Positions 7,248 through 60,009 are shown, counted from the whole stretch's first letter. The stretch: DNA of 60,009 bases, filler included, from Dimargaris cristalligena (GCA_003614675.1; 3 parts of 3 records of this genome joined end to end with filler, not necessarily neighbours in it), one strand, 5' to 3'. Notes: generated by a model from the letters alone, not told the origin. Translations and numbers: made by a program.

Positions 7248-10200
7248 TTAGGTATGTCCCCGGATCTGGCCCCAGTGTTTTTTGGTCATGGGGGTTAGTT
7301 CGTTCAATTGGGGCGATGTCACGGCGGGGGGCGACCGAACCCTGGAGGATGTCGCAGGGTTTAGTCCGCCCTGGGAGGCCCATGATGTCACCCGTTGTGA
7401 ACCCAGGGAACGAAGGGAGGGTACGGCTACTGGTCCCTGGGAATTCCGCCGGACAAGGGGTCGTAGAGACTCAGGGGGACTTTTCGCCGAGGATCGAGCC
7501 TGGTCCGATGATGCCTGGTACCCAGTTATAGGCACAACTGGGTCATTCTGGCTGAATGAGAGGGCGTCATTGACTTTGAACATGAGTTGCTCAACTGGGT
7601 CTCGCTCTGGTTGGGCAGCGGTAGCAGCTGTGGGGCGATAGTAAACTGACTGACGTCGGTAAATCGTTTGGGTCGTCGGGCCTAGTCCGTATGGGTGTTG
7701 GGACATCCCTCTCATTTCTGCTGGCCTGGGCGGTCTGGTGGAAACTAGTGGTGGGGGCTGCGCTGCCGCCATTGGATAAGGAACAGCATTGTTGGGTAGG
7801 TATCCTGGGTGATGCGTGATGTACTCCGTCTCCTCGTAGGCCTCCATAATATAATTTCTGCTCCGCGTATCTCTGCTATCGGGACCGAGGTTAGACGATT
7901 GCGCAGTGCCCATTGAAGGATTCCGTCGCTGTAAGGGATCGGAGTGAGAGCCATTGGAGGGTGCGTAGGGCTGATATTCGGGCGATGTGGTTAAATAGAG
8001 GTTCCGTTCCGGTAGCACGGCGGATTCTTGTTCATCTAATCGGAAGTACTTGCGGGTGACACTACGAGTAGGAGTCGTAGTAGCCGGGCCGGATTCAGGG
8101 ACTGGGATAGCCGAGCCTTCAGCCGAATTGGTCACCCTTAGTCGATCCGCTGGTATCGAAGTGCCAGTGGAATAAGGAGGTCGATAATCGGGTTTCTTAT
8201 CGGGACTGTTAGAATCCATCGGAGATTTTCCACTCAGAAGTGCTAGCTGTTTCTGTAGAAGTTCGATTATTGTCTGCTGTTGTTGAATAATAGTTTGGCA
8301 CTCAGAAGCCGTTAGCGGGGCGCTATTGGTCGATTGGGACGCAGGGACTACCTGGCCATCACATAGTGGGGCTGGGTTAGGTGATGCAATTGGATCCAGG
8401 GAAAATTGTGGAGAGCTGGGTGACGCTTCGGTAGCATCCGGTGAATCAAATTCGATGGACCCGTCCTCTACGGGATCCGCTGGCATCATGGGTGTATTAA
8501 TCGTCAGTTGGGCAAGGTCTGTGCAGTCGGATAAACTAAGATGGTTGGTTAAGGTGCAGTAAGATAGGTTAAATTAGTGAAATACATAAATTTTTACATT
8601 AGAAATTATTGTGTTTTATTACACTAAAGTAATATCGCACAGGACCATACATTAAAGAATTTTAGACCGAATGCGATAAATCCAGGAAGTGGGGTATGAT
8701 GCCTTACTCTAGATTCAGCGAACGGCAGCTTCGGATAAAGGCAGCGTCCACTAGTTCGTGTACTGATTCAGTTTGGTCAAGGAACCAGGAGTCAGTTATC
8801 CGGCGGTTCTTGCGGGGTGTAACATCGGTTGATACCAAAGCCATCATTTGCTGCACGGTCAGGTCGCCGCCCCGAAGCAGGAAAGCAGCGGGTACCGGGT
8901 CAGTCGAGAATAAAAACGTTTGAATGGGCCGATCGGCTTTGGCGAAGGCGACTGGTCCGGGTGGTCGCTGGCCAATAAGCATTACGGCCACCGGGGACTT
9001 CCGTGTATGGCTAGGTTGACTGAGGAGATAATCTAGGCAACGGCGCTGAACCCAGGGGTCGGAGGGCGATGCTGCCCCTAGGAACCAAAGACCAGTCAAC
9101 GATATCGGGGGATGGTCAGATTCATCGTTAGATTGGGAATCGGGGTCAGTATCTTGCGGCTGGCCCTCCGCTTGAAGAGTGGTCTCACTAGTGTCCGAAC
9201 TGAAGGTCCAAAACCCCCAAGCACCGCGGGTCAGCCCGGGGGAATTGTTTGAGAGGTGGTCAGGCACCTGTTCATTCTCGCTCGCTTTAGAGACCGCCCG
9301 GCCCTGGCGATTAAATTGTACCCAATTAGTCACTATACACCTTGGACCAGGGTCCACTCTAAAACCAATGCGGGGTTCCCAGAGACGGTACTGTAGCCGA
9401 AGGTGGGTATTATCGCTGGGATTGGGAAATGCCAAGACCACCCCATGTACTGTGCCTAAGGCCCCGTACGAAGCACCGAGGTATTTTTTATAAACATCCG
9501 CCTTCCAATCCAGGGCGTGTTGAGGAGGTCCAGTGTAGATGTGCAGTGGGAGGACCAAGTCGCCATCCAGCACTAATGTAGGTATCCGATCGGGCACCGA
9601 TGTAAAGTCGTCCCCGAGCGAACCGGGTGATACCAACCGACCAGGATCGAGCCGGTTAATTACAATCGTGGCTGTATCGGCATCAGATCCTGCGAGTCCA
9701 GGATCTACGGTTTCGTCGTCCAAGTAAGCTATACATAAAACATCTGCAGTTGGGGTGGAAATCGGGGGCGATTCATGATATCCGTAGTTCATTCTGGATA
9801 AACAAAACTGAACAATGGCCTTGGCGCACGCGATTCGAAGTGTAGCCTGGTTTATGGTGGGGTAGATTGGGTGTGGGTCGGGAAATACATATTTGCGGGG
9901 ACTGGTATGCGCCGTAGGCGTGGTGGGTGCCGGGGAGGAGTAGGGAGACCTGGTTGATATGGTTACAAAGTTATATATCGTGCATCAGGTAGCGGTGTAA
10001 AGGGTGGTGAGTCATTAGCTGCCCAGCCAGAACGAGTTAGCTACTACAAACTAAATAGGGGGCGGGGTTCCTTAAAGAGTCGTACTTCGTATGGGTTGGA
10101 TTGGACATGCAATGCCAACACATTCCACGTATAGTAAACTTACCCAAGGGGCCTTTGTGTAATTGGGGATTTAGGACCAGGAGGGGAAATAAATACAGGA

Positions 10201-10370
10201 GATTGTAGGTCCAAGGTTGTCGAGGCTAGAGAGTTGGCGGCCTGCGTACTTGCTGTGGGCTGGGCTGTGGAAGTGTACGTGGCTGTCTGGTGGGGCAAAG
10301 GACGAGGGAAAGAATCGGTTCGAGTAGCCGCTGGTGGAGCTCGTGGTAAGTAAACGGTTGGTGGCTCCAT
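7248..10370 (-). CDS. STIL/SAS-5/Ana2-like centriole assembly protein, 918 aa; exons 10370-10144, 9949-8708, 8535-7248
   Basis: Two phase-2 GT-AG introns (GG|gtaagt...aaccag|G; GA|gtaagg...cttag|T) join three ORFs in frame (2757 nt). Motifs resemble animal STIL: INRLDPGR..PTLVLDGDLVLP (DRFDPGR..PTASLPGDFLIP), WGFWTF (YGYLTM), SLTGLWFLG..DPWVQRRCLDYLL (PLVGIWLSG..SPQVWACCLRYIF), FSLDPIASPNP (FSPRPIPSPHP), coiled coil IIQQQQTIIELLQKQLALL, and SPQLNELTPMTKKHW (SPNNMSFATKKYM). Confidence 0.8.
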
Positions 10371-11485
10371 GGGTTAGGAATTCGCCTCGAATGAGAATAA
10401 TTAATATTGTGGAAGATGTGGGATGGTGCAAAAGTTAGAATGGGAATGCTAGAAGTACTCCAAATATAAAAACTAGTATACCCGTTGAACGGGGTGACGC
10501 TGGTCGTAGAAAGGCATGCGGAATATCCTGCATTGCTGGTGGTTAAAGGAAAAGTCCATTTTTTGACTGCTTTAGTTATTATGGTGCTCTGCTTCGAACG
10601 TCAGGTCAGTTGGCCCGTTGGTCAGGGAATAGCCGACCCCTGGCTATTAACTCTCCTATTTAATACCTACTGAGCGGTTTGTTGACATTACCCGCCTTCT
10701 AAACTCACTTATGCTTTAGCCCAGTTGGATTCGGAGTTTGAAATCCACCCCAGATCACGTGATAATATAAACGACACCCGTTAATCTAATTACATTCTAT
10801 CTATTGGTATTTTGGGAACGACTATATAGCCAATCCATGGCATACCTTGACATTTCTACGGGATTTCCTATTAATTAAGTGTCGCCTACGATCTCTCGGT
10901 TAGAATGACCCCCTACGTCAAACCTGGTTTATCCAACTGGATATAGATGCGTATGTTGCTGCATTGTAGGGACTGGTGTGGTTGATGTACGGTTGACCCG
11001 TTTTTCATGACAGAATTATATTATGGCCAATTCCAGCTGAATACTTGAATTCAATTGGTATCGGTTTTTGCTTCAATCTGGGCGGCCGATGGGCTCGGTG
11101 TATGAAACATTGCATTAAACAATATTCCATTGATTGAATGGTGTGGCTCTGGCAGCCCTTTACAGGCCCCCTGTACTACTATTAAACTCTTGTTAACCCA
11201 AACACACATATTGCCATGGCCAATTAAGCGAGGGCATTACCTAATCTTCCCACCATGGGACTTGGCTCTGCTGTTTTCCCGTGTGGTAGAATGAGTGTTG
11301 TTTACATAATGGGCCAAAAGACAGTGTTCAAGGTTTCCAGGAAAAACGAAGCGGCTGGGTCGCTGCGGAGCTGAAACTATCTCTACTGGAATCCTTTACC
11401 CTAGCCTCCACCGAACTTTATTTTATCACATTGTTTATTTTCCTAGTCGCTTTATACCCTTTAAAGTTTACCAGGAACGTCCACC

Positions 11486-14400
11486 ATGCGTATCGAGGAA
11501 ATAACCGTCGACGGCTTCAAGTCCTATGCCTCGCGAACAACCATCGCCGGATGGGACCCGGAGTTCAATGCCATTACAGGTCTTAATGGGTCCGGCAAAT
11601 CAAATGTCCTGGATTCCATTTGTTTTGTTCTTGGCATCAAGAACCTTTCGCAAGTACGTGCCGGGAACCTCCAGGACCTGATCTACAAGCGTGGCCAAGC
11701 GGGTGTCACCAAGGCGTCTGTCACCATCGTATTCAACAATGAGGACCGGAGCAAAAGTCCCCTGGGTTACGAGGGGTGCCCACGTATTTCTGTCACGCGT
11801 CAGGTAGGTTAATTAGTTGCGCTTCGGCAAGTTAGGACTAACACCCGTTGCACCCAACTGGGCTCTGTCGACTTTATTTAACCTTGGCCTATTCCCTGCC
11901 AACTAATTTATGCTCCCATTTCCTCCAATTACCATTCGGCCTTGAATTCCCACTTTAGATTAGTGTAGGCGGGAAAAGCAAATACCTCATCAATTCGCAA
12001 AACCAGCAGGAGCAGACCGTTGCCAACCTATTTCAGTCGGTTCAGCTCAATGTAAATAACCCCCATTTTCTGATCATGCAGGGTAAAATCACCCAAGTGC
12101 TCAACATGAAAGCTCCGGAAATTCTGTCCATGATCGAAGAGGCGGCCGGAACCCGCATGTTCGAGGATCGCAAAGAAAAGGCCTATCGAACCATGGCCAA
12201 GAAGGAAAAGAAAGTCGAGGAAATCACCGCCAATCTGAACGAAGACATTACGCCAAAGCTAGACCGGCTACGGGGTGAAAAGCGGGCCTTTTTGGAATAC
12301 CAGAAGCTCGAGATTGAGGTCGATCGGTTGACTCGCTTAGTGGTGGCTTACGAGTACTGCCAACACCAGGAACACCTTAATCAAACCGGACAGGACCACG
12401 AAGCCCAGGTCGAGCGCCGCCGGTTGCTCAACGAGCGTCTAGACACCCTCAAGAGCGAGATTACTAACCTTCAAGAAGACATTTCCCGCATCCAGGCGAA
12501 CAAGCGTACCAAGATGTCCGGCGGTGGCCGGTTCGCCACTCTGCAAGCCAGTGTCGACCACCTGTCCACCGAATTGGCGCGGGTTCAGACTCAGTGTGAT
12601 CTCAAGGCAGTCACCCGGGCCGAAGAAGGTGCCCAGTTGCAATCGCTGGCCGCGAATCTTTCCGAGACCGAAGCTTCTCTAATCGACAAGCGCCAGCAGA
12701 TTTGCAAAGTAACTGAGCGGTTTGAGGCTGTCAAGTCCGAAAACGACGAGCGGGCCCGCGTGGTTCGACAGACCGAAGAACTGATTCAAACGCTTACTAC
12801 GGGCGTGTCCGCGGAGGAGGGCCACGAAAGCGGCTACATGGAGCAACTCCAAGTCGCCAAACAGAAGGTAGCCCAGGCCGGTACAGCGGAGGAGCAGGCC
12901 AAGCGTAAGCTGACCCATACCCAAAAGCAAATCAAGGAAGTCGAGCCCAAATGTCGGAAGGCCGAAGCTGCAAACCGCTCCCTGATGGCTAACCTTGAAA
13001 GTGAGCGCTCTGCCTTGGCCGCCACCCGCCAGCAACTGGAACAGCTGGCATGGGATCCCCAAGTGGAAACGACCCTACGCCAACGGCAGGCCGAGGAGCA
13101 GCACACCTTGACCGACCTTCGCGAGCAGCACGACCGCGCGTCATCCCAAATGGCGGGACTGAACTTTCAATATGCTAACCCCACCCCTAACTTCGACCGG
13201 TCTCAGGTCAAAGGACTGGTGGCCAATCTGGTCACTTTGGAGCAGGCCAACTACGATAAATCGACTGCGCTGGAAATCTGTGCCGGAGGGCGACTGTATA
13301 ACGTCGTGGTCAGTAGCGAAGTGGTTGGTACTCAGCTCCTGCAGAGGGGTCAATTGCGTCGACGAGTGACCATCATTCCGCTCAACAAGATCCAGGCCTT
13401 CCGGGCTTCGGCCAAGGTAAGTTGGCTAGTCCGAAATCCTCATTTAACCCATTACCGGTCTTGTTCATATTTCTTTTAGAAACACAATGGGTCACTTGGA
13501 TAAAGCATCGTCACAGGCGCCAACGGGATACTAGTTGCCGCTGATAGTATTTCGTATAGTATCTCTAACCTATAATTTTTTATTTATACCTCTCGTACCT
13601 ACTATTGGGATTTCTGTTGTATGGACCATCCCGTGGTTGACTAATCCAGGCCATTGCCACTGCCAAGGAGCTTGCTCCGGACTGTGTCAACCTCGCCCTC
13701 GAAATCGTGGGCTACGACGAAGATGTGGCCCCCGCCATGCAGTACGTATTCGGTAGTACTTTGGTGTGTCGCGATGCTGCCACCGCCGAAAAGGTTACGT
13801 TCCACAAGGACGTCCGCCTGAAGTCGGTGACCCTAGATGGGGATGTATACGACCCCGCTGGTACTCTACAGGGTGGATCCAAACCTAACTCCTCGGGTCT
13901 ACTCATTAAATTACAGACACTCCATGACCTCAAACGACAAATCAAAGCCCACGAAACCACGCTAGCGGATATTAATCGCCAACTTCAGGAAGCTCAATCC
14001 ACCATTCGGCAGTACAAGGAATTCACCACGAAGGCGGATCTCAAGGCACACGAAGTAAACCTTCTCGAAGAGAGTATCGCCAAGACAACCCATGCGCAGG
14101 TAAGATTCGTTGGCTTTTTATTTTATTTTGGCCACGTCTCACCTTAACTCGTCCACGGGGCTGACCGCCTACCACTAATTCTAATACGCGCGTCATTGAT
14201 GATAACTCGTCGATAACATCGTCGAATCCCAGTTCAATAGCGTAACCACGTTAAATGCTGCCATGTTAACTAATCTATCTATCATAATGGTCGACGTGTG
14301 CCCTTGTTTTATCGCTATACCCAGCTCCTCCAACAACTACAATCCCTGCGTCAAGAACTGGAGGACTTGCAGACTACCATCGTGACCTCACAGAATGATA

Positions 14401-40146: not shown

Positions 40147-40249
40147 GTCAATATGGCCGAGTGGTTAAGGCGTCAGACTCGAACCTCATTCCAATGAGCG
40201 TGAAATCTGATGGGGTTCCCCCGCGCAGGTTCAAATCCTGCTGTTGACG
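40147..40249 (+). tRNA. tRNA-Ser(CGA) with a 21-nt intron (40184-40204)
   Basis: GTCAATA/TGTTGAC acceptor stem with G73, TGGCCGAGTGGTTAAGGC D-arm, TCAGA-CT CGA A[intron]A-TCTGA, long variable arm, GCAGG-TTCAAAT-CCTGC T-arm, T10 terminator. Confidence 0.93.
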
Positions 40250-41544: not shown

Positions 41545-42728
41545 ATGGTGAAAGAGTACCTAGCCCACGCCGAGGCCAATTACCCGGTGTATTTGGCCAC
41601 CGAATGGGGTCCCCATCTGCCCGTGGCCATCGCCATGACCCTACACGCCCTGCGGGTTAGTTACGAGGTCCGCAAGATGCTTAACATCAACGGCCGTTTG
41701 CCTATGCTGCATGAGGTCTTTGTCCTGCTAACCCTGTCGTTTGGCGGTGGTATCATTTCTGGTAAGTCGAAGTACCTCTTTATATCTATTATCCAGACGG
41801 CGTTGTACATAGGGGTCTGCTACTGCCTCGGCTGCCAGTGGCGACTGCACTATTCACTTACCTTGTTAGAGATGGCATCGAAATCCCCAATGCGAGTCTT
41901 TTCCTGTATCGGCTCAATCTATGGCGGAACTCACTGGGGCGAATACCCCGCTTTGTTCGTGGGGCACATGTCCAGCGACTCATTAATCCCAAATTTAACC
42001 AATTCTATTGTCCCATCCCGATATACCAACCCTACTTAATCGATGTAGCCTCGCTTCTCGGCAATCCCCAACCCTGGTTGGTGAATAACGGCATGATCCC
42101 CACCTACGGCCTGGTGTACCTGGCGGTTGGGTTCTTCCCCGGGGATTTCGTATTCCAGCTCCTGCGCCTTCTCTCCCCGGCTTCCGATATCTTCCTGGCT
42201 GCCGTGGACGGTGCCATCCGGGGCTACGGTGTTACAGTGGCCGGGGTGGAAATGGTGCGAAACATGGACGGCCCCATCAGCCAGTCCCTCACGGCTATGC
42301 TGGTCATCGGCACGGTGCTAGGCTGCGGCGGTGGGATCATCGAAGACGTCATCCAAATGTCCAAGCGCAGTTGGGCTCTTCGTACGCCCACTTTCTTCCA
42401 GCGCCCTAACGTCGATATGGGCATTACGTTCACCACTGTGGTGTTCTACATCTTCAGCACTCGTCTCTGGCGCTTCGATGACCAACACCCGGGGCTGATT
42501 GGGGCCGCCTGGTTGGATGCTATCATCGAATGGATGATTCCCGAATTGGCCCCCGAAACGGCCCGCGTTCTATGCGGCCTGTTTTGTGCCGGCGCTCTTT
42601 CGTACAAGGCCCTGGGCGATCATCGCCAGTACCAAGGCTGGTTGAAAAAATCCGCTCTCACCCCGACTCCGACTGTCGCCGCTGCCCCGGAGCTTAACGA
42701 GAAGGAGGATACTAAGAAGGACCAGTAG
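41545..42728 (+). CDS. TRIC/TMEM38-like trimeric intracellular cation channel family protein (298 aa); exons 41545-41761 and 42049-42728
   Basis: SFGGGIISASLLGNPQPWLVNN, YLAVGFFPGD, IRGYGVTVAGV, IGTVLGCGGGII: two Gly-rich repeats in a multi-TM protein. Confidence 0.7.
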
Positions 42729-43703: not shown

Positions 43704-45793
43704 ATGCTGGCCCTCTGGTTGAGACAAACGATTTCCTTACGGGCACCGGTACCGACTGTTCGGGTTAATCGCTGGTTAACGAAGCCGCTCGATATATCCA
43801 CCCGGCACTTTATCACTCCGGCTAATTTAGGTAAGTAAAACACCCTTATCGATTTTTAAACCGTAATCATAACCAAATACATTACCATTGCCAAAAAGCC
43901 CCACCAGGCTGATACAAATGCTACCTTTTCTTGGGATTACTGCATTTTCCAGAACCCTAATACGTGGCGACTTAAGAGCAATCAAAAGTCACTGGGTTTC
44001 CCACCATCATAGCTATTTCCATATTCATGGCTAATGGAATCTAATTACTGAAACTATTTTATCCATTCTACTCCACAGCCCGATCCGCCTATTTCCATAC
44101 CACTAGTTTAAACCGAAAAGACGATAGTCATGGTTCTTTGGACCCACCACCGCCGTCTGGCGAAGAGGGTTTATTGATTGAAGATTTTTTCGGTGACCAT
44201 ATTGACCTTCACCAGTTGGGCCTGAATACCGCCGATCCATTGAAAGATAATGCGCCGTCTCTATTATCATCAGACCCCACCTTGTCACACACTATGGACC
44301 CAAGCCGGCCCGGCCCCCCTGAGGAGCCGACACCTATGGAAACTCCCGCTGGCAGCACTACCTCCCAGTCCCTCTCCTGGATCCACTTGAGCATGGAACG
44401 GTTGAAAGAACGAAACGATAGTCAGGGAATTTTGCTCAAGTGCCAGGAAGTTGTCGACCGGGGACTGAGACCCACGGAGGAGACCTACCGCCACTTACTC
44501 CATGCCTACCGAGTCGACCGCCAGTTCAACGCGGCCTACGCCGCGCTGAAACAGATGATCAAGCACAAAATTTCCCGAACCGTGGGTCCGTTCCACCAGG
44601 TGATGGGGATTGCCGTCTATACCCGGTACTCGTACGGCTGCCAACTGGTCTACGATCTCATGAGCCGCCAGGGCATTAAAACCACCTCCTTGACTTATCA
44701 GTACCTGATTAGCAGTTACTGCCTCGATAACCAGATTGAACTGGCCCTGCGGCTGTATACGGTGCTGCGTGGGAACCATTTGGAGCCTACCGACGCCACT
44801 ACCCACCAAATCATTGGTGCCCTGTGCGATAATAATGCCACGGGCGAGGCGTTCCAATTACTTTTGGATTGCGAGCAGCGGAGCGGGTCCCTCAAGGCCA
44901 GCACCTACATTCGGCTGTTCCGCTCCGCGGCGGAGCATAACCATATCGAACCCTCGTTCCACTGCTGGCGCAAATTCGTGGACGTTTTCCGCATTCAGCC
45001 CACCCAGGGCGATTGTCTATTGGCCCTACGGGTCGCGGCCCTCAAAGCGCGCCCCGACCTTGCCTCGGACGTTCTGCGGGTCATGAACATCTACGAATAC
45101 CAATGCCAAGAACCGCATCTCGACAGCCTATTCATCGCTTTCGTGCGGGTAAGCGACTGGCGCAGCGCCCTGAACGTACTGCTGCTCATGTGGGAGGCCC
45201 GGTTCCTCGCGGACCATTCCTTATTCGAACCGATGCTGCACCGGCTCATTCGCCAGCCTAAACAGATGGACAATGTCCTGGCGGTCCTGACGGAATTCCA
45301 ACTCGAGAACAAACCCGTTTTCGTGGGTGTGCTTAACGTCCTGCTCAACGCCAAAACCCGATTGGGGAACGTGCGCGACACCCTCCCGTTCCTCCGGGAA
45401 TTCCAAACCCGGTTCCACGTGGCCCCTACCCGCGAGTCGTATCATGTGTTGTTGGAGGGTTGCGTGGTTGCGGGGGATAATGTGCTGGCGGACCAACTGT
45501 TCCACGAAATGCAGCAGCAGGACTCGGTGGATCTTAAGCCGAATCGGGGCACGTATAAGAAAATGATCATATTGCATACGCACCGGCCCAATTACGATGA
45601 GGCGTTCGTCTTACTCGAGGAAATGAAGGCCGCTAATATCATCCCGCCCACGTCAGCGTACATCGCCATTATCCGGGCGTGTATTCGGTCCAGCGACTCC
45701 CGGGCGAAGGTGGCGCTGAAGGAAATGGAAATGTTCGGGTACCCCTTGTCGTTTGAGCTCCGCGAGGCAGTAAGCAAGTTTGTGGCCATTTAA
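43704..45793 (+). CDS. Mitochondrial pentatricopeptide-repeat (PPR) protein (613 aa); exons 43704-43830 and 44079-45793
   Basis: Arg-rich presequence MLALWLRQTISLRAPVPTVRVNRW; about 35-aa repeats such as TYQYLISSYCLDNQIELALRLYTVLRGNHLEPT and SYHVLLEGCVVAGDNVLADQLFHEMQQ. Confidence 0.88.
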
Positions 45794-46045: not shown

Positions 46046-49000
46046 TTAAAGTAAAAATTCGCTTATCTTGACGGGTTTCCGAACCGCATTCGAAAACCCT
46101 TCATTAAATTGGTACCAGATACGCGAACCCGTGGGATTGTTGGCGGTGACCGGCTCCGAATATCCCCCCCGGGCGGGCGACTTGTCCGTAGCCCGGGTGG
46201 GGGATGCCGACGGGCTCACCGAACTGGGCACCTGCGGTTGAATGGGGCGACCAAAGAAATCCCGCAACAATGGGGCAGCGACCTTCGTGGGCGGGGTAGA
46301 CGACATCTGCGTCGGTGTATTATCTTGGGGGGCCGAAGGGGGTGGCATAGTGGAGCGTCGGGCGGCCTGGCTAGTATACGTTTCCAGAATGGCCGCCGCA
46401 GCCACTGCCGTAGCTGAAGGTCGGTTGGTTGATGGAGCGGACACCGCCGTCAAGGCTTCCTCCGCATCCCGTAGGGCCAGTTCACGCCGCCGTATAATTT
46501 CCTTTTCGACTTCCTGGGCGATCATTTGCTGCGTAGCGTATTTAGTGGGCAGCAGACTGGTGGTACGTTTGGCCGTCAGTGTACCGCCACCGTTATTTGT
46601 CCCTGAACCATCTTTGGTGCCCGGCTTTTCCCACTGGCGGGTCAGTAGGGTCGCCGAAGTCGGCAGTACGACCAGGTTCAATTTATCGGCCACCAAAGTC
46701 AGTTCCAGGGGCGGTTCGATGCGGTATTGGAATTGGCCGTCTTCGGACCGTTCCTGCACGTAGGTTAGGCCACTGTGGGCCATGACGGCCACGAGCCGAT
46801 CGAACTCGGCCCGTTCGTCGGGTTTCAGCAACTGGACATTACTGCCCGTGATGGGGGTGGCAATAATCCGGGTTAGGGACGATATAAGTTCGAGGGCCAG
46901 TTTAGGGACGGTCCAATGCCGCCGAACGGACAGACTTCGCATACCGGTTAAGGTGCCCAGCAGAATTTGTTCGCAGGCGCGCTGTTGGGTGCGCATTTCG
47001 TAGTCCACGCGGGGGTAACTCCATTCGTGGTTCTGGGCAAACGGATTCGCCATGGCCGAATGGGCGAACATGAGGGAGTAGGGCATGTACCCCAGCAAAG
47101 CATCTTTCCCCTGGGAGGATCCGCCGGTACTGTACAGTTTGGCGTTGAGTAAGTCGTAATAGGCGAACCAGTCCCCAGTCTGCACAATTTTTTGGAAGTA
47201 GGAGTCGTGGAACCGTAATCGGAGGTAGTTTTCGAAGCAGCCTTGGATAAGTTTGTCGTATTCGCCGCTGGCCACCAAGTCCGCGTACAGATTTTCCAGA
47301 TACTCCCGCCGGTAGGCCGTACCCCGGATTTTCAGATTGGTGGACGCTGGAGCGGCGGGGCCGTTTGAAGGGGTGGTGGTAAGGCTCGGTTGATTAAGCG
47401 CGGCGGCCGTTAGGCCCGAAAGGGGCTGGGCGGAGGGTGGGGTGAAAATACGTTCCCACAGCTGAAACAGGGACTGCTCGGTATCTTTAACACCGACGGG
47501 GGTGCGTTTAATCATGTCCCAAGTGATGTGGGCCATCGAGGAACGCGCGGCATGGGAGGTACACATTTGTTGGTGGAGAAACTGGAGGGTATGGAGGCAA
47601 TTACGCAAGTCGCATTCGGAACGACTGCTCAGGGCCACCAGAGTCGACAGGTCCGCCCGGAGGCCCTCCGATAGGCATAGCGTCTGGAGGCGCTGGGCTA
47701 CCACGGCGGGGGCCGGTCGTCGGATATGGTAAACCTGGGCTACCGTTCGCAATTGGCGCAGGGCCGGGGCGTAGATGTTATTACAGACGCAAATGATGGG
47801 TCGCATCAGTGGAGCCGGTCCCTTGCGCCGCCGCGCCGGTCGATTGGCCGCGCCACCTCCCTTGGACTTATCGGGTATATCCAAGTCCGTGAAGGAACGC
47901 ATTTTAGAATGGGATGTCGACGCTTCGGCCTGGGCCATGGCCACCAGCAGCCCGATGAAATCCCGGGGATTGGCACTGGTATTGCCACCTGGTCCACCGG
48001 GACCCGCCCCCGTGACGGCCACACCGTCGATTTCATCAATAATCAGGGCCGTGGGTTTTCCCGACGCCCGAACCGAGTGGGACTGCGCGATGGAAGTCAA
48101 TTTGTGGTACACCTGCGTGCCGGATCGGTCGTCGCTGGCGTTGATTTCCACCGTAGCATAGCCCGCTTGCTGGGCAATAATGTGGGCCAAGGTGGTTTTA
48201 CCTAACCCCGGGGGACCCGCCAGCAGCATAATCTTGCGGAAGGGCCGGCGGTAGGGGTCATCGTTTTTGCGCCCATCGTAACCACCCCCACGCTGATTAC
48301 CTAGGTCATTATTATTGTTAGTATTATTATCAGCACCGGAGCCCCGGTTGGAAGAAAACCGGTCTTTATCCCCCGTATTAAAGCCGGGCCCAGTGCGGGA
48401 GGAGCGATTGTGGAGTTTGGTGTGGTTTTGGTAGGATGGGTTTTTGCGGCCAAAGACACAGTAGTCCCATTGTTTGAGCCATAGAAGGGTTTCACGATTA
48501 ATCTTTTCATCGCTGATTAGATCAGTGAAATAACGCGGTTTGTATTTGTCCACCCAAAGGGTTCGCATTGCGGTGTTACCTTCGCCGCTAGATATACGTG
48601 AATATATATATATATAGTATATACAATAAGGTTAAGAAGGAATGAATATCCGAAAATGGGAAAATGAGCTGATGGGCGATATCAGTACCCTCCATAATAT
48701 ATAAGGCATGGTCTTACATTTTCATAGACTGGGCCATGGGTTCCAACTGCGCCGTAGGGTCTGTGCGCCGAAGGGTATTTTCCACTCGATCCTGTTCAAT
48801 TTCGTCCAGAATCCGGTAAATCGACGATCCTAGGGTGGTCCGACTAGTCCGAATGATTTGTTCCAACCGGTCCTGTGCCGCTACCTGGTGTCGGATCGGT
48901 TTACGCCATTCGGACCCACGCTTCCGGGGGAAATAAAGACGGCAGCCATTGGAGGTGCTCGCCATAACAAATGAGCCCGACGCTGGCGGTACTCGATAGT

Positions 49001-56026: not shown

Positions 56027-57790
56027 ATGCAAACTATGCAGTTTGGCTCCCGATTCCCTGGGCGTATGTGGGTCTTTTCCCCTACCTCGGGTCTTTACCC
56101 CCGTTCACTGACTCGAACCGCCCATTATGCAATGGGGCTCGGGCGTGCCGGGGTAGCTCGGTCCAGTTTGACCCCATCCTCGTCTCCCTCACTAAGTGCC
56201 TCTATCGCCATGCCCAAGCGCCCCATTTCGTTTCAAATTATCACCCCTCCGTCACCACGTCGGTTCACTAATAAACCCTTGCGCCCTTCTAAACAACTGG
56301 TGCGCTACATGGCCGCCGGTGGGGTGGTTATGGGTGTTTATTACGTGGCCCACCTTGAAGAAGCCCCCATCAGTGGTCGGCGGCGATTCATGGCGGTCTC
56401 TAATGAAGATGTCGAGAATATGGCTAAACATTCGTATCAGGAAATTATGCGCGAATTCGGCCACCAAATGTTGCCGGCCAGCCATCGGGTAAGTTCGAAT
56501 GCCGTATAAAAAAAAGGAAAGCTGTCTTGGGCAGCCAATGGGTATCGTGAGACCTCTATTTTCTCATTAATTTATTGGAAGAGAAGATCAATATTCTCGG
56601 ATTTACTTTGCTTTTGGAGGAATCTAGACCTTATCGGAGTGAAGGCCAGTCATATTAATCCGGTATCCCCTTATTACTATGCGTATATATCGGTCGATAT
56701 ATTTAACGTTGCCATGATCGGCTATAATGCAAAATGCCCCTGTAGTACACCGCATTTGTTCGGCGAGTGGCTACTCGAATTATAAAAGGTTAGTAATACC
56801 GATAACTGTACAACTGTCGCTTTTCTGAGGATACTAACTAGTATGAACATACGTCCACAAGCGAGCGAAAGCATAGCACTGTTCATTTTAATTTCTTAAT
56901 GAAAAGTCCGGGTTTTTATTTATTCCAACCCCGCTGTACTAATCTATTGATACAATACCCCGCCATTGGGTCTGTCCGCTTTGTACGCTGTTTTATATCA
57001 TCCCCACCCAACCAGCGGGCGGTATGGAGAACTTAGACTGGGAATTCCATGTAATCGAGTCTCCCGAGGCCAATGCCTTCGTTATCCCTGGCGGTAAAGT
57101 ATTTGTGTTTACGGGCCTCCTCCCCATCGTAAAGAACGAGGACGGCCTGGCCACCGTACTGGGCCACGAAATTGCCCATCAACTGCTGGGCCACCACGCC
57201 GAACGCATGTCGTACGGCCAATTTCTATCCATAATCCAGATGATAGTGAGTATCTTTTTTGACCCCACCTTTTCGGGCTTCAACCGCATGTTTTTGGAAC
57301 TGGGCATTTTGTTACCCAACAGTCGGAAATGTGAAACCGAGGCGGACCATGTCGGCCTTCAGTTGATGGCCCAGGCATGCTTTGATCCCCAGGCGGCCAT
57401 TGGGGTGTGGGAGCGAATGGCGAAATTGAACAAATTTAAAGGTAGTTTCGAGTATTTGCAAACGCACCCGAGCAGTGAGGGTCGCATCGAAAAGATGCGC
57501 AAATGGATGCCAGAAGCCGAACAGAAACGGGCCGATTCCGACTGTCAGCAAGGTAGGTCTTCTTCCTCTATGATTGTAGGGCACCAAAAGATAACAGCCT
57601 ATCCTTCAACCATTCCCGCTTTTTGAATGTCACATCAGTTACATTTTACAGGACCCCTTCAAGTTTAGATATCCGCCCAATCACCTTTACTCACCATATT
57701 CCGAATTATACTCCTATTTTGATACGATTTTAACCAACAGAGGCCTTCTACCTTACCCAAATGTTCCCTAACTATAGTGTCCGTTGGTGA
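56027..57790 (+). CDS. OMA1: Mitochondrial M48 metalloendopeptidase Oma1; exons 56027-56488, 56746-56788, 57016-57552, 57741-57790 (last exon inferred)
   Basis: HLEEAPISGRRRF, NAFVIPGGKVFVFTGLL, LGHEIAH zinc motif, SRKCETEAD, YLQTHPS. Confidence 0.93.
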
Positions 57791-57966: not shown

Positions 57967-58932
57967 CTAGTTAGGCTCCTCGGAATCAAAATAGGCCTCC
58001 TCGACTTCATCATCGCAGGCCCGAATATCGTCGTACAGTTCATTGTCGTCAACGACGGAGTAGTCGAAGTCCCGGTCGAGGCCAGCCAGGAATCTCCGTT
58101 CGGAAATCTGAATCAAATCGAGTTCGAGTTCCTTTAAATCAGCGGCAGACAGCTGGGGTGATGGTGGGGTCGATGTTGTTGACGCTGACATTGGTGAAAG
58201 ACCGACTGTTCTATTGTCCGTAATTTCGGTCCTCGGCGGTGGATACTGAGTGTTAGGTGAATTGTAAGGGGATAATGGAGATGCTTGCTTGATTGATAGT
58301 TCCGGACCAGCTGAAGCGGGAGGAGGGCTAACCTCTGGTGGGGGTTGGATGCGGGGGGCTGTTGGCTGGGATAAATTGCTAGGAGAATTTCTAGACATGA
58401 GTCGTGAAAATGCTGCTAACATTTCGGGACCAGTTTCGTCACCGTCTTCGCTGTCGGAATCGTTTTCTTCCCAGGAATCCCTATCCCATTCCCTGGTCTG
58501 CCTAGGAAATTGTTGGGGCCAAGAGGTCAAGTCGGACGAAGCGGGGGGCTGATTAGTTGCCATATCGAAGGGGGGGCTATTTTCCTCATGGTTGGTAGAG
58601 GAATCCGCAACGCCCTTTTTTTGCGGTTGCCCCTTTACCCTTGGTACCGATCCTTGCCTGTTCTGTTTGGGCAGTTTTTGGTCATCGAGGACAGCCTGGT
58701 AGGCAATCTGCCAGTCAATATCGGCATACATACGCTCGACTAAACCCAGGTTGTCCGGAAATGGCTGGCTACCCTCATCGGGTTCGAATTGGCCTAGGTG
58801 GTGATGGTATAGTACGGGATCCCGTTGACGGAGGGCGGCTTTATCAAAATAACCCTCAGGATGAAGCACAGTGCGCAAATAGTATAGGCGCCGTTTGTAG
58901 GCGATTGAGGAAGGCGGTGCTGGTACTCCCAT
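57967..58932 (-). CDS. CCDC97-like (DUF2052) protein
   Basis: KRRLYYL...GYFDKAALRQRDPVLYHHHLGQF and C-terminal RFLAGLDRDFDYSVVDDNELYDD...EEAYFDSEEP. Confidence 0.85.
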   Translation of the reverse strand: MGVPAPPSSIAYKRRLYYLRTVLHPEGYFDKAALRQRDPVLYHHHLGQFEPDEGSQPFPDNLGLVERMYADIDWQIAYQAVLDDQKLPKQNRQGSVPRVKGQPQKKGVADSSTNHEENSPPFDMATNQPPASSDLTSWPQQFPRQTREWDRDSWEENDSDSEDGDETGPEMLAAFSRLMSRNSPSNLSQPTAPRIQPPPEVSPPPASAGPELSIKQASPLSPYNSPNTQYPPPRTEITDNRTVGLSPMSASTTSTPPSPQLSAADLKELELDLIQISERRFLAGLDRDFDYSVVDDNELYDDIRACDDEVEEAYFDSEEPN

Positions 58933-60009
58933 GTAATAATAACAATTTAGGGAAACGTCAATGGTTAAATGTAAAAAAGGTCATAGACTGTTAGCATTAA
59001 AAACAAGTATGAGGAAAGAAAAGACCCACGTTTATTGATTGACTATTGATTCACTATATATGTCCCATAATGGGTTTACTATTGGTTAGTCCTCTAACAT
59101 AGAGGGTAGGTGGGTGGATTTCATTACAGCCTAATAGTGGAGGGTGTATATATTTGTTGGTTTGGGCTTAATCAATGGTTTGTTTATCACCCACCAAAAA
59201 TCCCAAATTGACATCATTCAGATCATAATCCGGTTTTTAAGCTATATCATTTTTTGTCAATTTATTAAAAGGGAAAAGCACTGATACTGCACTGGAATAT
59301 AGAATAGAACTTAGTTATCTACCATTTTTCTAAAAAACCACAACTCCAAATTACTAATGTATCTAAAAAAAAACTACATTCTCAGTACCTACTTTTTTAG
59401 GCCTTTTATTATGCTGTCTCTTAAAAAATCATAGCCTTCAGTGGTACCTATACTCAGGCCCAGGTCACTGGGACATCCTTAGGACTGGTCTTATAGGAAT
59501 ACCCAATCTTCAAGTATCCAGTGGCCCCATAATACCTCCAGTAACCAGGCTATTAAGTTTATTAGAATAAATGTTACCCAGGTTAACCACTCTTAGTTCA
59601 TCAAGAGTCCCGAGGATAGGCTTCTAACAGTAGACAGGGCTTAGGCTCAGCCAAGTGGGTCCTAGCATTAGGATGGGGTAAGGTGCTAACTAATAAAGGC
59701 TACTAAATACAGGTATACACAAGGGATGTGCAGGAGGCATACTTACTAGTTAATACAAGGGGGGTGAGTGTATATACAGTTTCTTAGGATAAACAAGGAG
59801 GTAAGAATAAGCTAAGGAATTAAACTAGTCCCAGTGGGGCCTAGTTATATATATACAAGGGGCAACTCCAGAGGGAGGTCCCCAGGGAAGGATACTACTA
59901 AGACTAAGTGTGGTGAACTTACCACATTTTTTACCTACTTTTATTTTTAATCCATTTTTCACACTTATCGGAAGTACGCCCCTGACAAGTGAATGAGCCC
60001 CTGCCCCTG

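Follow-up and report, generated by a model that had tools for sequence, protein, structure and literature searches.

The stretch of DNA analysed here, referred to as the window, comprises 60,009 nucleotides, filler included, from the fungus Dimargaris cristalligena (GCA_003614675.1; three parts of three records of the genome joined end to end, not necessarily neighbours in it). On its minus strand, from 10370 to 7248, lies a gene for a protein of 918 amino acids (aa) which, judging from its sequence, is probably a new and very diverged member of the STIL family in an unexpected lineage. In animals, centriole assembly is started by STIL, and fungi without a flagellum were thought to have lost the centriole-assembly machinery. 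The following sections describe the gene and its orthologues, the features that its product shares with STIL and those that are missing, and the role that such a protein might have in a fungal cell.

Structure of the gene and its orthologues

Three open frames on the minus strand (10373-10140, 9984-8704 and 8573-7248) meet without a stop codon at their joins, and the exons joined from them amount to 2757 nt, i.e. 918 codons and a single terminal stop, TAA. The parts of the gene are as follows.

10144..10370, minus strand: exon 1, codons for aa 1-75 and 2 further nt; start codon ATG at 10370-10368; clean frame join to exon 2
9950..10143, minus strand: intron 1, 194 nt, GTAAGT..CAG
8708..9949, minus strand: exon 2, aa 76-490 in part; the entire N-terminal domain lies inside
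8536..8707, minus strand: intron 2, 172 nt, GTAAGG..TAG; junction in common with the NCBI model P0001
7248..8535, minus strand: exon 3, from within codon 490 to aa 918, ending in TAA at 7250-7248; largely low-complexity sequence in which five blocks are conserved

Both introns contain 2-5 stops per frame in all three frames. The product can be divided into four parts, namely a disordered N-terminus with a conserved PRAPP motif, a STIL_N-type domain, a short coiled coil and a C-terminal half of low complexity in which five blocks, among them the last 20 residues, are conserved. The product of exon 1 is rich in proline, serine and threonine and is probably disordered.

Orthologous proteins are found in three species of the same order, i.e. 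D. cristalligena itself (H4R33_003010, P0001; 780 aa, from another isolate, 99% identical to the window protein and 100% over the best local alignment), Dispira parvispora (P0002; partial, 581 aa) and Dimargaris verticillata (P0003; 789 aa). All three are annotated as 'hypothetical protein' and carry no precomputed Pfam domain. In BLASTP the spliced protein aligns with the Dispira protein in a single high-scoring segment that covers aa 2-549 and spans both junctions (E 5e-24), and with the D. verticillata protein in a single segment that covers aa 187-915 and spans junction 2 (E 2e-45). Because these colinear segments cross the junctions, the splicing is more than a chance arrangement. The exon 2/3 junction is also the one used in the NCBI model of the other D. 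cristalligena isolate. The original prediction, that three frames splice in phase through two canonical introns into a 918-aa protein, is thus borne out by the join itself and by the cross-species alignments, and the junctions it named (10144/9949 and 8708/8535) are the exact last and first bases of the exons.

The 5' end is where our model and that of NCBI differ. The P0001 model begins at an upstream ATG (peptide MPFYDQRHPVQP; window 10371-10520 and 9730-9948, minus strand) and omits exon 1 together with the first 73 codons of exon 2, so that the first helix of the STIL_N-like domain is lost. The N-terminus encoded in the window, EPPTVYLPRAPP, is identical to that of the Dispira protein, EPATTYHPRAPP, at 9 of 12 positions, and the part of exon 2 that P0001 omits aligns both with the Dispira protein and with the first helix of the STIL structure 5OI9. 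Therefore, the ATG at 10370 appears to be the better start.

Run X1 is identical to the window and may be the source from which it was taken. A contig of run X5, from another isolate, shows 20 differences over 3701 positions and no insertions or deletions. Fourteen of the differences fall within the 2757 nt of the coding sequence (5 synonymous and 9 non-synonymous, at about 701 synonymous and 2053 non-synonymous sites), and six within the 944 nt of introns and flanks. Exon 1 holds 4 synonymous and 3 non-synonymous differences in 227 nt, exons 2 and 3 together 1 and 6, and exon 2 alone 2 differences in 1242 nt; five of the replacements between isolates are also present in P0001. With 7 of the 20 differences, exon 1 thus appears to encode a fast-evolving disordered N-terminus. 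A crude estimate of dN/dS comes to about 0.6, and the coding sequence has diverged about as much as introns and flanks (14/2757 and 6/944), counts that give no sign of strong recent constraint and are far too small to decide. A dN/dS that is not clearly below 1 and the different 5' end of the NCBI model would both suit a locus at which the three frames are transcribed separately, or a decaying pseudogene. We regard this as very improbable, given the canonical introns, the frame intact over 918 codons, the complete lack of indels between isolates across 3701 bases, the colinear annotated proteins of two other species that span both junctions, and the blocks kept across genera. The case for function comes from the intact frame, the lack of indels and the conservation of blocks across species and genera. 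Being intact and having orthologues in two other Dimargaritales, the locus is, as far as can be read from these comparisons, a functioning gene rather than debris.

The homologues come from the lineage Fungi; Kickxellomycota; Kickxellomycotina; Dimargaritales. Dimargaritales belong to the non-flagellated terrestrial fungi. A probably non-flagellated fungus had been supposed as the host in the original prediction, and the Kickxellomycotina lineage agrees with this. The order is described as consisting of haustorial mycoparasites with merosporangia (PMC6899921). Beyond this order the family could not be followed. A phmmer search of 1,835,955,588 representative proteins returned just 2 at E<=0.001, both from Dimargaritales. 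Word-indexed profile searches returned none among longer proteins and 3 among proteins of near length, all from Dimargaritales, and a single match with a trimmed three-species profile; they are weak evidence of absence because each scored at most 8000 candidates. A homologue in Coemansia was found neither by phmmer over the representatives nor by the word-indexed profile searches.

Similarity of the N-terminal domain to STIL

The part of the protein that carries the relationship to STIL lies inside exon 2 and contains two well-conserved blocks.

8710..9897, minus strand: STIL_N-like domain, about aa 94-489; matches to Pfam STIL_N and to 5OI9; colinear in P0002 and P0003
9544..9669, minus strand: best-conserved STIL_N core, TIVINRLDPGR ... 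IPTLVLDGDLVLPL, aa 170-211; aligned to 5oi9 residues 83-124 (IINIDRFDPGR ... VPTAVIPGDVIIPL)
9025..9093, minus strand: second colinear STIL_N block, GLWFLGAASPSDPWVQRRCLDYL, aa 362-384; aligned to 5oi9 residues 253-285

When exon 2 was searched against 24,736 Pfam models, two families were listed at E<=10, of which STIL_N (PF15253) ranked first (E 1.5e-4, 21.2 bits), with exon 2 aa 88-140 matching model positions 57-100. In a phmmer search of 177,635 distinct sequences from the Protein Data Bank (PDB), the first of 3 matches to exon 2 was 5oi9_A (E 0.011), in two colinear stretches (query 91-137 to chain 83-124, and query 281-313 to chain 253-285). This chain is residues 1-348 of Trichoplax adhaerens STIL, according to Table 1 of its description (PMC5928214), where the N-terminal domain (NTD) of STIL is described as two MPN-like subdomains resembling the N-domain of ATG7. 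A profile of the three Dimargaritales species found the same chain at E 1.1e-5, and after trimming it was the sole PDB match at E<=10 (E 1.4e-5, 27.5 bits, again two colinear stretches). A gain of about 1000-fold in E-value on adding orthologues is as expected for true homology. The three Dimargaritales sequences agree without exception at G, W, G, V, R, C and L of the second block. The domain shows, colinear with 5OI9, the blocks INRxDPGR ... IPTxVxDGD ... GLWxxG...C..YL. The aligned first helix includes the positions of L47 and R50, described as CEP85-interface residues of Trichoplax STIL (PMC5928214).

A third method, a language-model feature search of 7.7 million atlas clusters with the 780-aa P0001 as query, placed STIL clusters at ranks 1-3 with scores of 0.92, 0.92 and 0.91 and with 198, 197 and 196 of 256 features shared, where at least 170 are typical of true family members. 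The top clusters carry STIL_N, CC_STIL and PRM_STIL, and 7 of the 10 best family-bearing matches agree in family or clan with the best match.

Several results weigh against assigning the protein to the STIL family. The curated gathering score of STIL_N, 27 bits, is missed by both sequences that match (21.2 bits for exon 2 of the window and 18.8 bits for P0001), and these two are both from D. cristalligena; P0002 and P0003 alone, i.e. 2 of the 4 sequences tested, give no STIL_N match in Pfam. The individual stretches aligned with 5OI9 are weak (i-Evalues 0.045 and 3.8 with the trimmed profile), and a single motif largely accounts for both the Pfam and the PDB matches. In the atlas, exon 2 searched on its own returned nothing usable, the recognition value for P0001 was low (1052, against 2300 typical of known families), and shuffled proteins reach a score of 0.9 in 4 to 10 of 100 cases. 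AlphaFold2 models had a mean pLDDT of 30.0 for exon 2 of the window (3-row alignment) and 32.5 for the Dispira protein (4-row alignment), with no residue at 70. Taken with the search of more than a billion representatives, in which just two proteins from the same order were significant, these points would suit a Dimargaritales-specific protein unrelated to STIL that resembles it by chance. We consider such an explanation unlikely, as three methods that search different collections agree on one family, the E-value improved about 1000-fold with orthologues while the two stretches remained colinear, and the 196-198 shared features exceed the value typical of true members. Conservation within the family is known to be poor, with 13% identity between the fly and zebrafish members (PMC3776556). 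Weighing the sequence matches together, we consider it highly likely that the N-terminal domain is a true homologue of STIL_N. The original prediction had placed a STIL N-domain at 9850-8900 and named the STIL_N profile as the comparison to make; the similarity stands and STIL_N is the best Pfam family, at a score below the gathering score, and the proposed extent was too narrow, the domain reaching from about 9897 to 8710.

Coiled coil, proline-arginine motifs and C-terminal half

Outside the N-terminal domain, the following stretches bear on the comparison with STIL.

8229..8303, minus strand: short central coiled coil, ECQTIIQQQQTIIELLQKQLALLSG, aa 568-592; conserved in D. verticillata (QVLIAQQRTIIDLLQQQLDIFS)
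10332..10346, minus strand: partial PRxxPxP-type motif PRAPP, aa 9-13; 3 of 4 fixed consensus positions; identical in Dispira P0002
8373..8405, minus strand: FSLDPIASPNP, called 'CR2-like' in the original prediction; not accepted as a CPAP-binding motif
8037..8066, minus strand: conserved block RSVTRKYFRL, aa 647-656; D. verticillata RSITRKYVRV
7812..7850, minus strand: conserved acidic block IMEAYEETEYITH, aa 719-731; MEAYEETEYITH 12/12 identical in D. verticillata, in poorly alignable surroundings
7551..7601, minus strand: conserved block DPVEQLMFKVNDALSFS, aa 802-818; D. verticillata DPMQALLSRVNDVLSVS
7272..7307, minus strand: conserved C-terminal block LNELTPMTKKHW, aa 900-911, within the tail earlier called STAN-like (7320-7251); D. 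verticillata LHDLTPMTKKYL

The coiled coil that the original prediction had seen at 8303-8230 is present, at aa 568-592, and is conserved in D. verticillata. In human STIL, the residues of the coiled coil described as contacting PB3 of PLK4 are L733, L736, I740, L743 and L744, and Q737 and Q739 are those mutated in the M3 variant (PMC4530586). Threaded by hand, L733, L736, Q737, Q739, I740, L743 and L744 correspond to I580, L583, Q584, Q586, L587, L590 and S591 of the window protein, and six of the seven positions match; the D. verticillata coiled coil (IDLLQQQLDIF) shows the same pattern. The hxxLQxQ[IL]xxL arrangement of the human contacts is thus kept. When four copies of aa 556-602 were modelled with ESMFold2, the value was 0.51, against 0.22 for the best control, with a contact agreement of at least 82% and a partner pLDDT of at least 61. 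In calibration, 21 of 30 proteins solved as homo-pairs pass this mark and none of 23 solved as single chains does; for eukaryotes the figures are 17 of 29 pairs, with just 1 among the 7 of these that lack an older solved relative, and none of 30 single chains. This calibration used two copies and the coiled coil was run with four. The pass may also reflect memory, because the coiled coils of Ana2 and STIL have already been solved. With these limits, the model supports self-association of the coiled coil. Pfam gave no family for the coiled-coil piece of either Dimargaris species, and a PDB search with the piece gave chance matches only (HopQ and Vipp1, E 1.5-2.6).

The consensus for binding to CPAP is PRxxPxP (PMC3776556). 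A regular-expression search of the whole 918-aa protein found no strict PRxxPxP; partial forms occur as PR..P at aa 9 and 22 and as P...P.P at aa 78 and 538. The 'CR2-like' stretch at 8405-8373 had been put forward as such a motif and is ruled out: it contains no arginine, fits only P...P.P, and the aligned stretch of the D. verticillata protein differs. PRAPP at aa 9-13 is a more promising partial candidate and recalls the position of the motif in fly Ana2 at P11-R12 (PMC3776556), although Ana2 has the full PRxxPxP where only PRxxP is found here. The weight of PRAPP comes only from its conservation, because about one PRxxP is expected by chance at 12% proline, and a link to CPAP would be an inference only. 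SAS-5 has no unambiguous PRxxPxP either (PMC3776556), so that a missing motif does not exclude membership of the family. A KEN box was likewise absent from the window protein by regular expression.

Proline, serine and threonine abound in the C-terminal half, where the proteins of D. cristalligena and D. verticillata can be aligned in blocks only. Within it, MEAYEETEYITH (12/12) and LTPMTKK are kept between two species whose N-terminal domains share just 31% identity. A STAN-like region may begin with the block at aa 802-818; together with the block at aa 900-911 this block brackets about 110 residues, near the size of STAN (about 90 aa), which is only a resemblance. The conserved phospho-sites of the human STAN domain are S1103, S1108, S1111, S1116 and T1119 (PMC4477857), and neither Dimargaris protein shows their serine/threonine spacing in its C-terminal region. 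None of six Pfam queries (coiled coil, CR2 region, middle of exon 3, tail, P0003 and the D. verticillata coiled coil) gave a match, the presence of CC_STIL and PRM_STIL in the Pfam set being unconfirmed, and PDB searches with exon 3 and with an exon 3 profile returned nothing meaningful.

The protein resembles animal STIL (human and Trichoplax) in its N-terminal blocks, in its central coiled coil, in a conserved sequence near the C-terminus and in a long disordered body rich in serine, threonine and proline. It differs in its length (918 aa, against about 1000-1330 aa in the atlas STIL clusters), in staying under the Pfam cut-off, in having no PRxxPxP between the N-terminal domain and the coiled coil, no KEN box and no STAN phospho-site spacing, and in a host without flagella whose related genus has no canonical centriole. 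With Drosophila Ana2 it shares the proline/arginine motif at the extreme N-terminus, a conserved C-terminal region and a central coiled coil which is predicted here to oligomerise as that of Ana2 does. Ana2 is not known to have the large STIL_N domain. The central coiled coil of Ana2 (CCCD) is described as a tetramer (PMC4471874). By description, the protein can also be likened to Caenorhabditis elegans SAS-5, itself an extremely diverged member of the family.

A different outcome for a genuine STIL_N homologue would be that the protein has been repurposed away from centrioles and spindle pole bodies (SPBs), the similarities of the C-terminal half being convergent or generic. All of the significant sequence evidence is confined to the N-terminal domain, exon 3 matches nothing in Pfam or the PDB, the strict PRxxPxP, the KEN box and the STAN phospho-site spacing are missing, Q-rich coiled coils of the LLQxQL type are common, and canonical partners are described as undetected in the related Coemansia reversa (PMC6070874). 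Nevertheless, the order of STIL features is kept, with the N-terminal domain followed by a short coiled coil some 80 residues on and by a conserved C-terminal block; the coiled coil matches the STIL pattern at six of seven positions in two species; and the atlas match needed the whole protein and not the N-terminal domain alone, which suggests that the C-terminal half contributes STIL-like features. Repurposing is therefore rather unlikely in our view. The explanation that we favour, with moderate confidence, is that the minus-strand gene at 10370-7248 encodes a fast-evolving 918-aa member of the STIL/Ana2 family which, by analogy, would act at the SPB.

Neighbouring genes and the spindle pole body

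The remaining genes of the window include no SAS-6, PLK4 or CPAP/SAS-4. The neighbour on the plus strand, at 11465-14147, is a gene for the condensin subunit SMC2, divergent from the STIL-like gene with about 1.1 kb between the starts; SMC2 chains are matched by the open frame 11959-13479 (E 5e-96), and SMC hinge domains are present. That the STIL-like gene lies head to head with one for a mitotic protein might reflect shared cell-cycle regulation. The MluI cell-cycle box ACGCGT does not occur in the spacer between the two genes, and it is found 3 times in the window against 7.7 expected. A kinase at 34065-35795 on the minus strand (576-aa frame, catalytic domain at the C-terminal end) was considered as a PLK or Mps1 and is ruled out, its best PDB matches being AMPK, MARK, SIK and MELK at E about 1e-33. 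Two tRNAs were found with Rfam on the plus strand. That at 25809-25880 is tRNA-Pro(AGG) by ARAGORN, and that at 40147-40249, which ARAGORN missed, measures 103 nt against a model of 71 positions and probably contains an intron. A 760-aa open frame at 3-2282 on the minus strand runs off the start of the window within a stretch of 59% G+C and has no Pfam family at E<=0.001. Further genes, none of them a known component of the centriole or flagellum, are the following.

41766-42728: weak TRIC-channel-like frame
44045-45793: PPR-repeat protein
46046-48631: AAA ATPase
56943-57626: M48 peptidase
57967-58980: CCDC97-like protein

How the centriole was replaced by the SPB in fungi is an open question, for which the SPB of C. 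reversa is the one morphological intermediate usually cited. It is described as containing a centriole-like cylinder of nine microtubules whose composition is unknown (PMC6070874). In the same source, orthologues of SAS-6, CPAP and CEP135 are given as undetected in C. reversa, where they may be lost or may be too fast-evolving to detect; this adds to the points against a STIL-based role, since the canonical partners may be missing. The STIL-like gene of Dimargaris is an example of the second option, evolution too fast for detection. C. reversa is non-flagellated and belongs to the same subphylum, Kickxellomycotina, and its cylinder is a structure that a retained STIL could serve; it is, however, a morphological observation in a different order. 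To our knowledge, the SPB of Dimargaris has not been described.

In the text of the literature searched we found no prior report of STIL in Zoopagomycota or Mucoromycota, although figures or supplementary tables could hold presence calls. For STIL and Coemansia the literature gave only non-detection, and for Dimargaris and the centriole only taxonomic reviews. A survey that included STIL/Ana2/SAS-5 states that centriole biogenesis proteins were not identified in fungi except chytrids (PMC6559791). An OrthoFinder survey of 213 non-dikaryotic fungi (10.1101/2025.01.03.631223) could hold a presence call for Kickxellomycotina.

We propose a mechanism modelled on the PLK4-STIL-SAS-6 module (as described in PMC5095913). 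The coiled coil would oligomerise and offer a polo-family kinase a helix on which to dock; phosphorylation of the C-terminal blocks would then allow them to bring in a structural partner; and the N-terminal domain would bind a further scaffold, as the NTD of the animal protein binds CEP85. The site of action would be the SPB, once per cell cycle, and the outcome would be the seeding of a centriole-derived remnant, such as the nine-microtubule cylinder of C. reversa, or the duplication of the SPB itself. The docking of a kinase, the partners, the localisation and the role at the SPB or in a centriole remnant are inferred by analogy with the animal module. On this basis it is conceivable, though we hold it only tentatively, that a functioning STIL-centred module survives in Dimargaritales, and perhaps more widely in Kickxellomycotina, without flagella being present, and that it builds or duplicates a centriole-derived remnant in the SPB.

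The gene also illustrates that standard orthology searches overlook relatives as diverged as this one. A STIL-like gene in another kickxellomycete order provides a specific protein that can be localised and can serve as bait, and makes the idea of a 'remnant centriole' testable. If the partners prove to be absent, a centriole assembly factor would have outlived the loss of the centriole. If the proposal holds, STIL would already have been present in the last common ancestor shared by animals and terrestrial fungi, and the gene would offer the first molecular handle on the transition from centriole to SPB.

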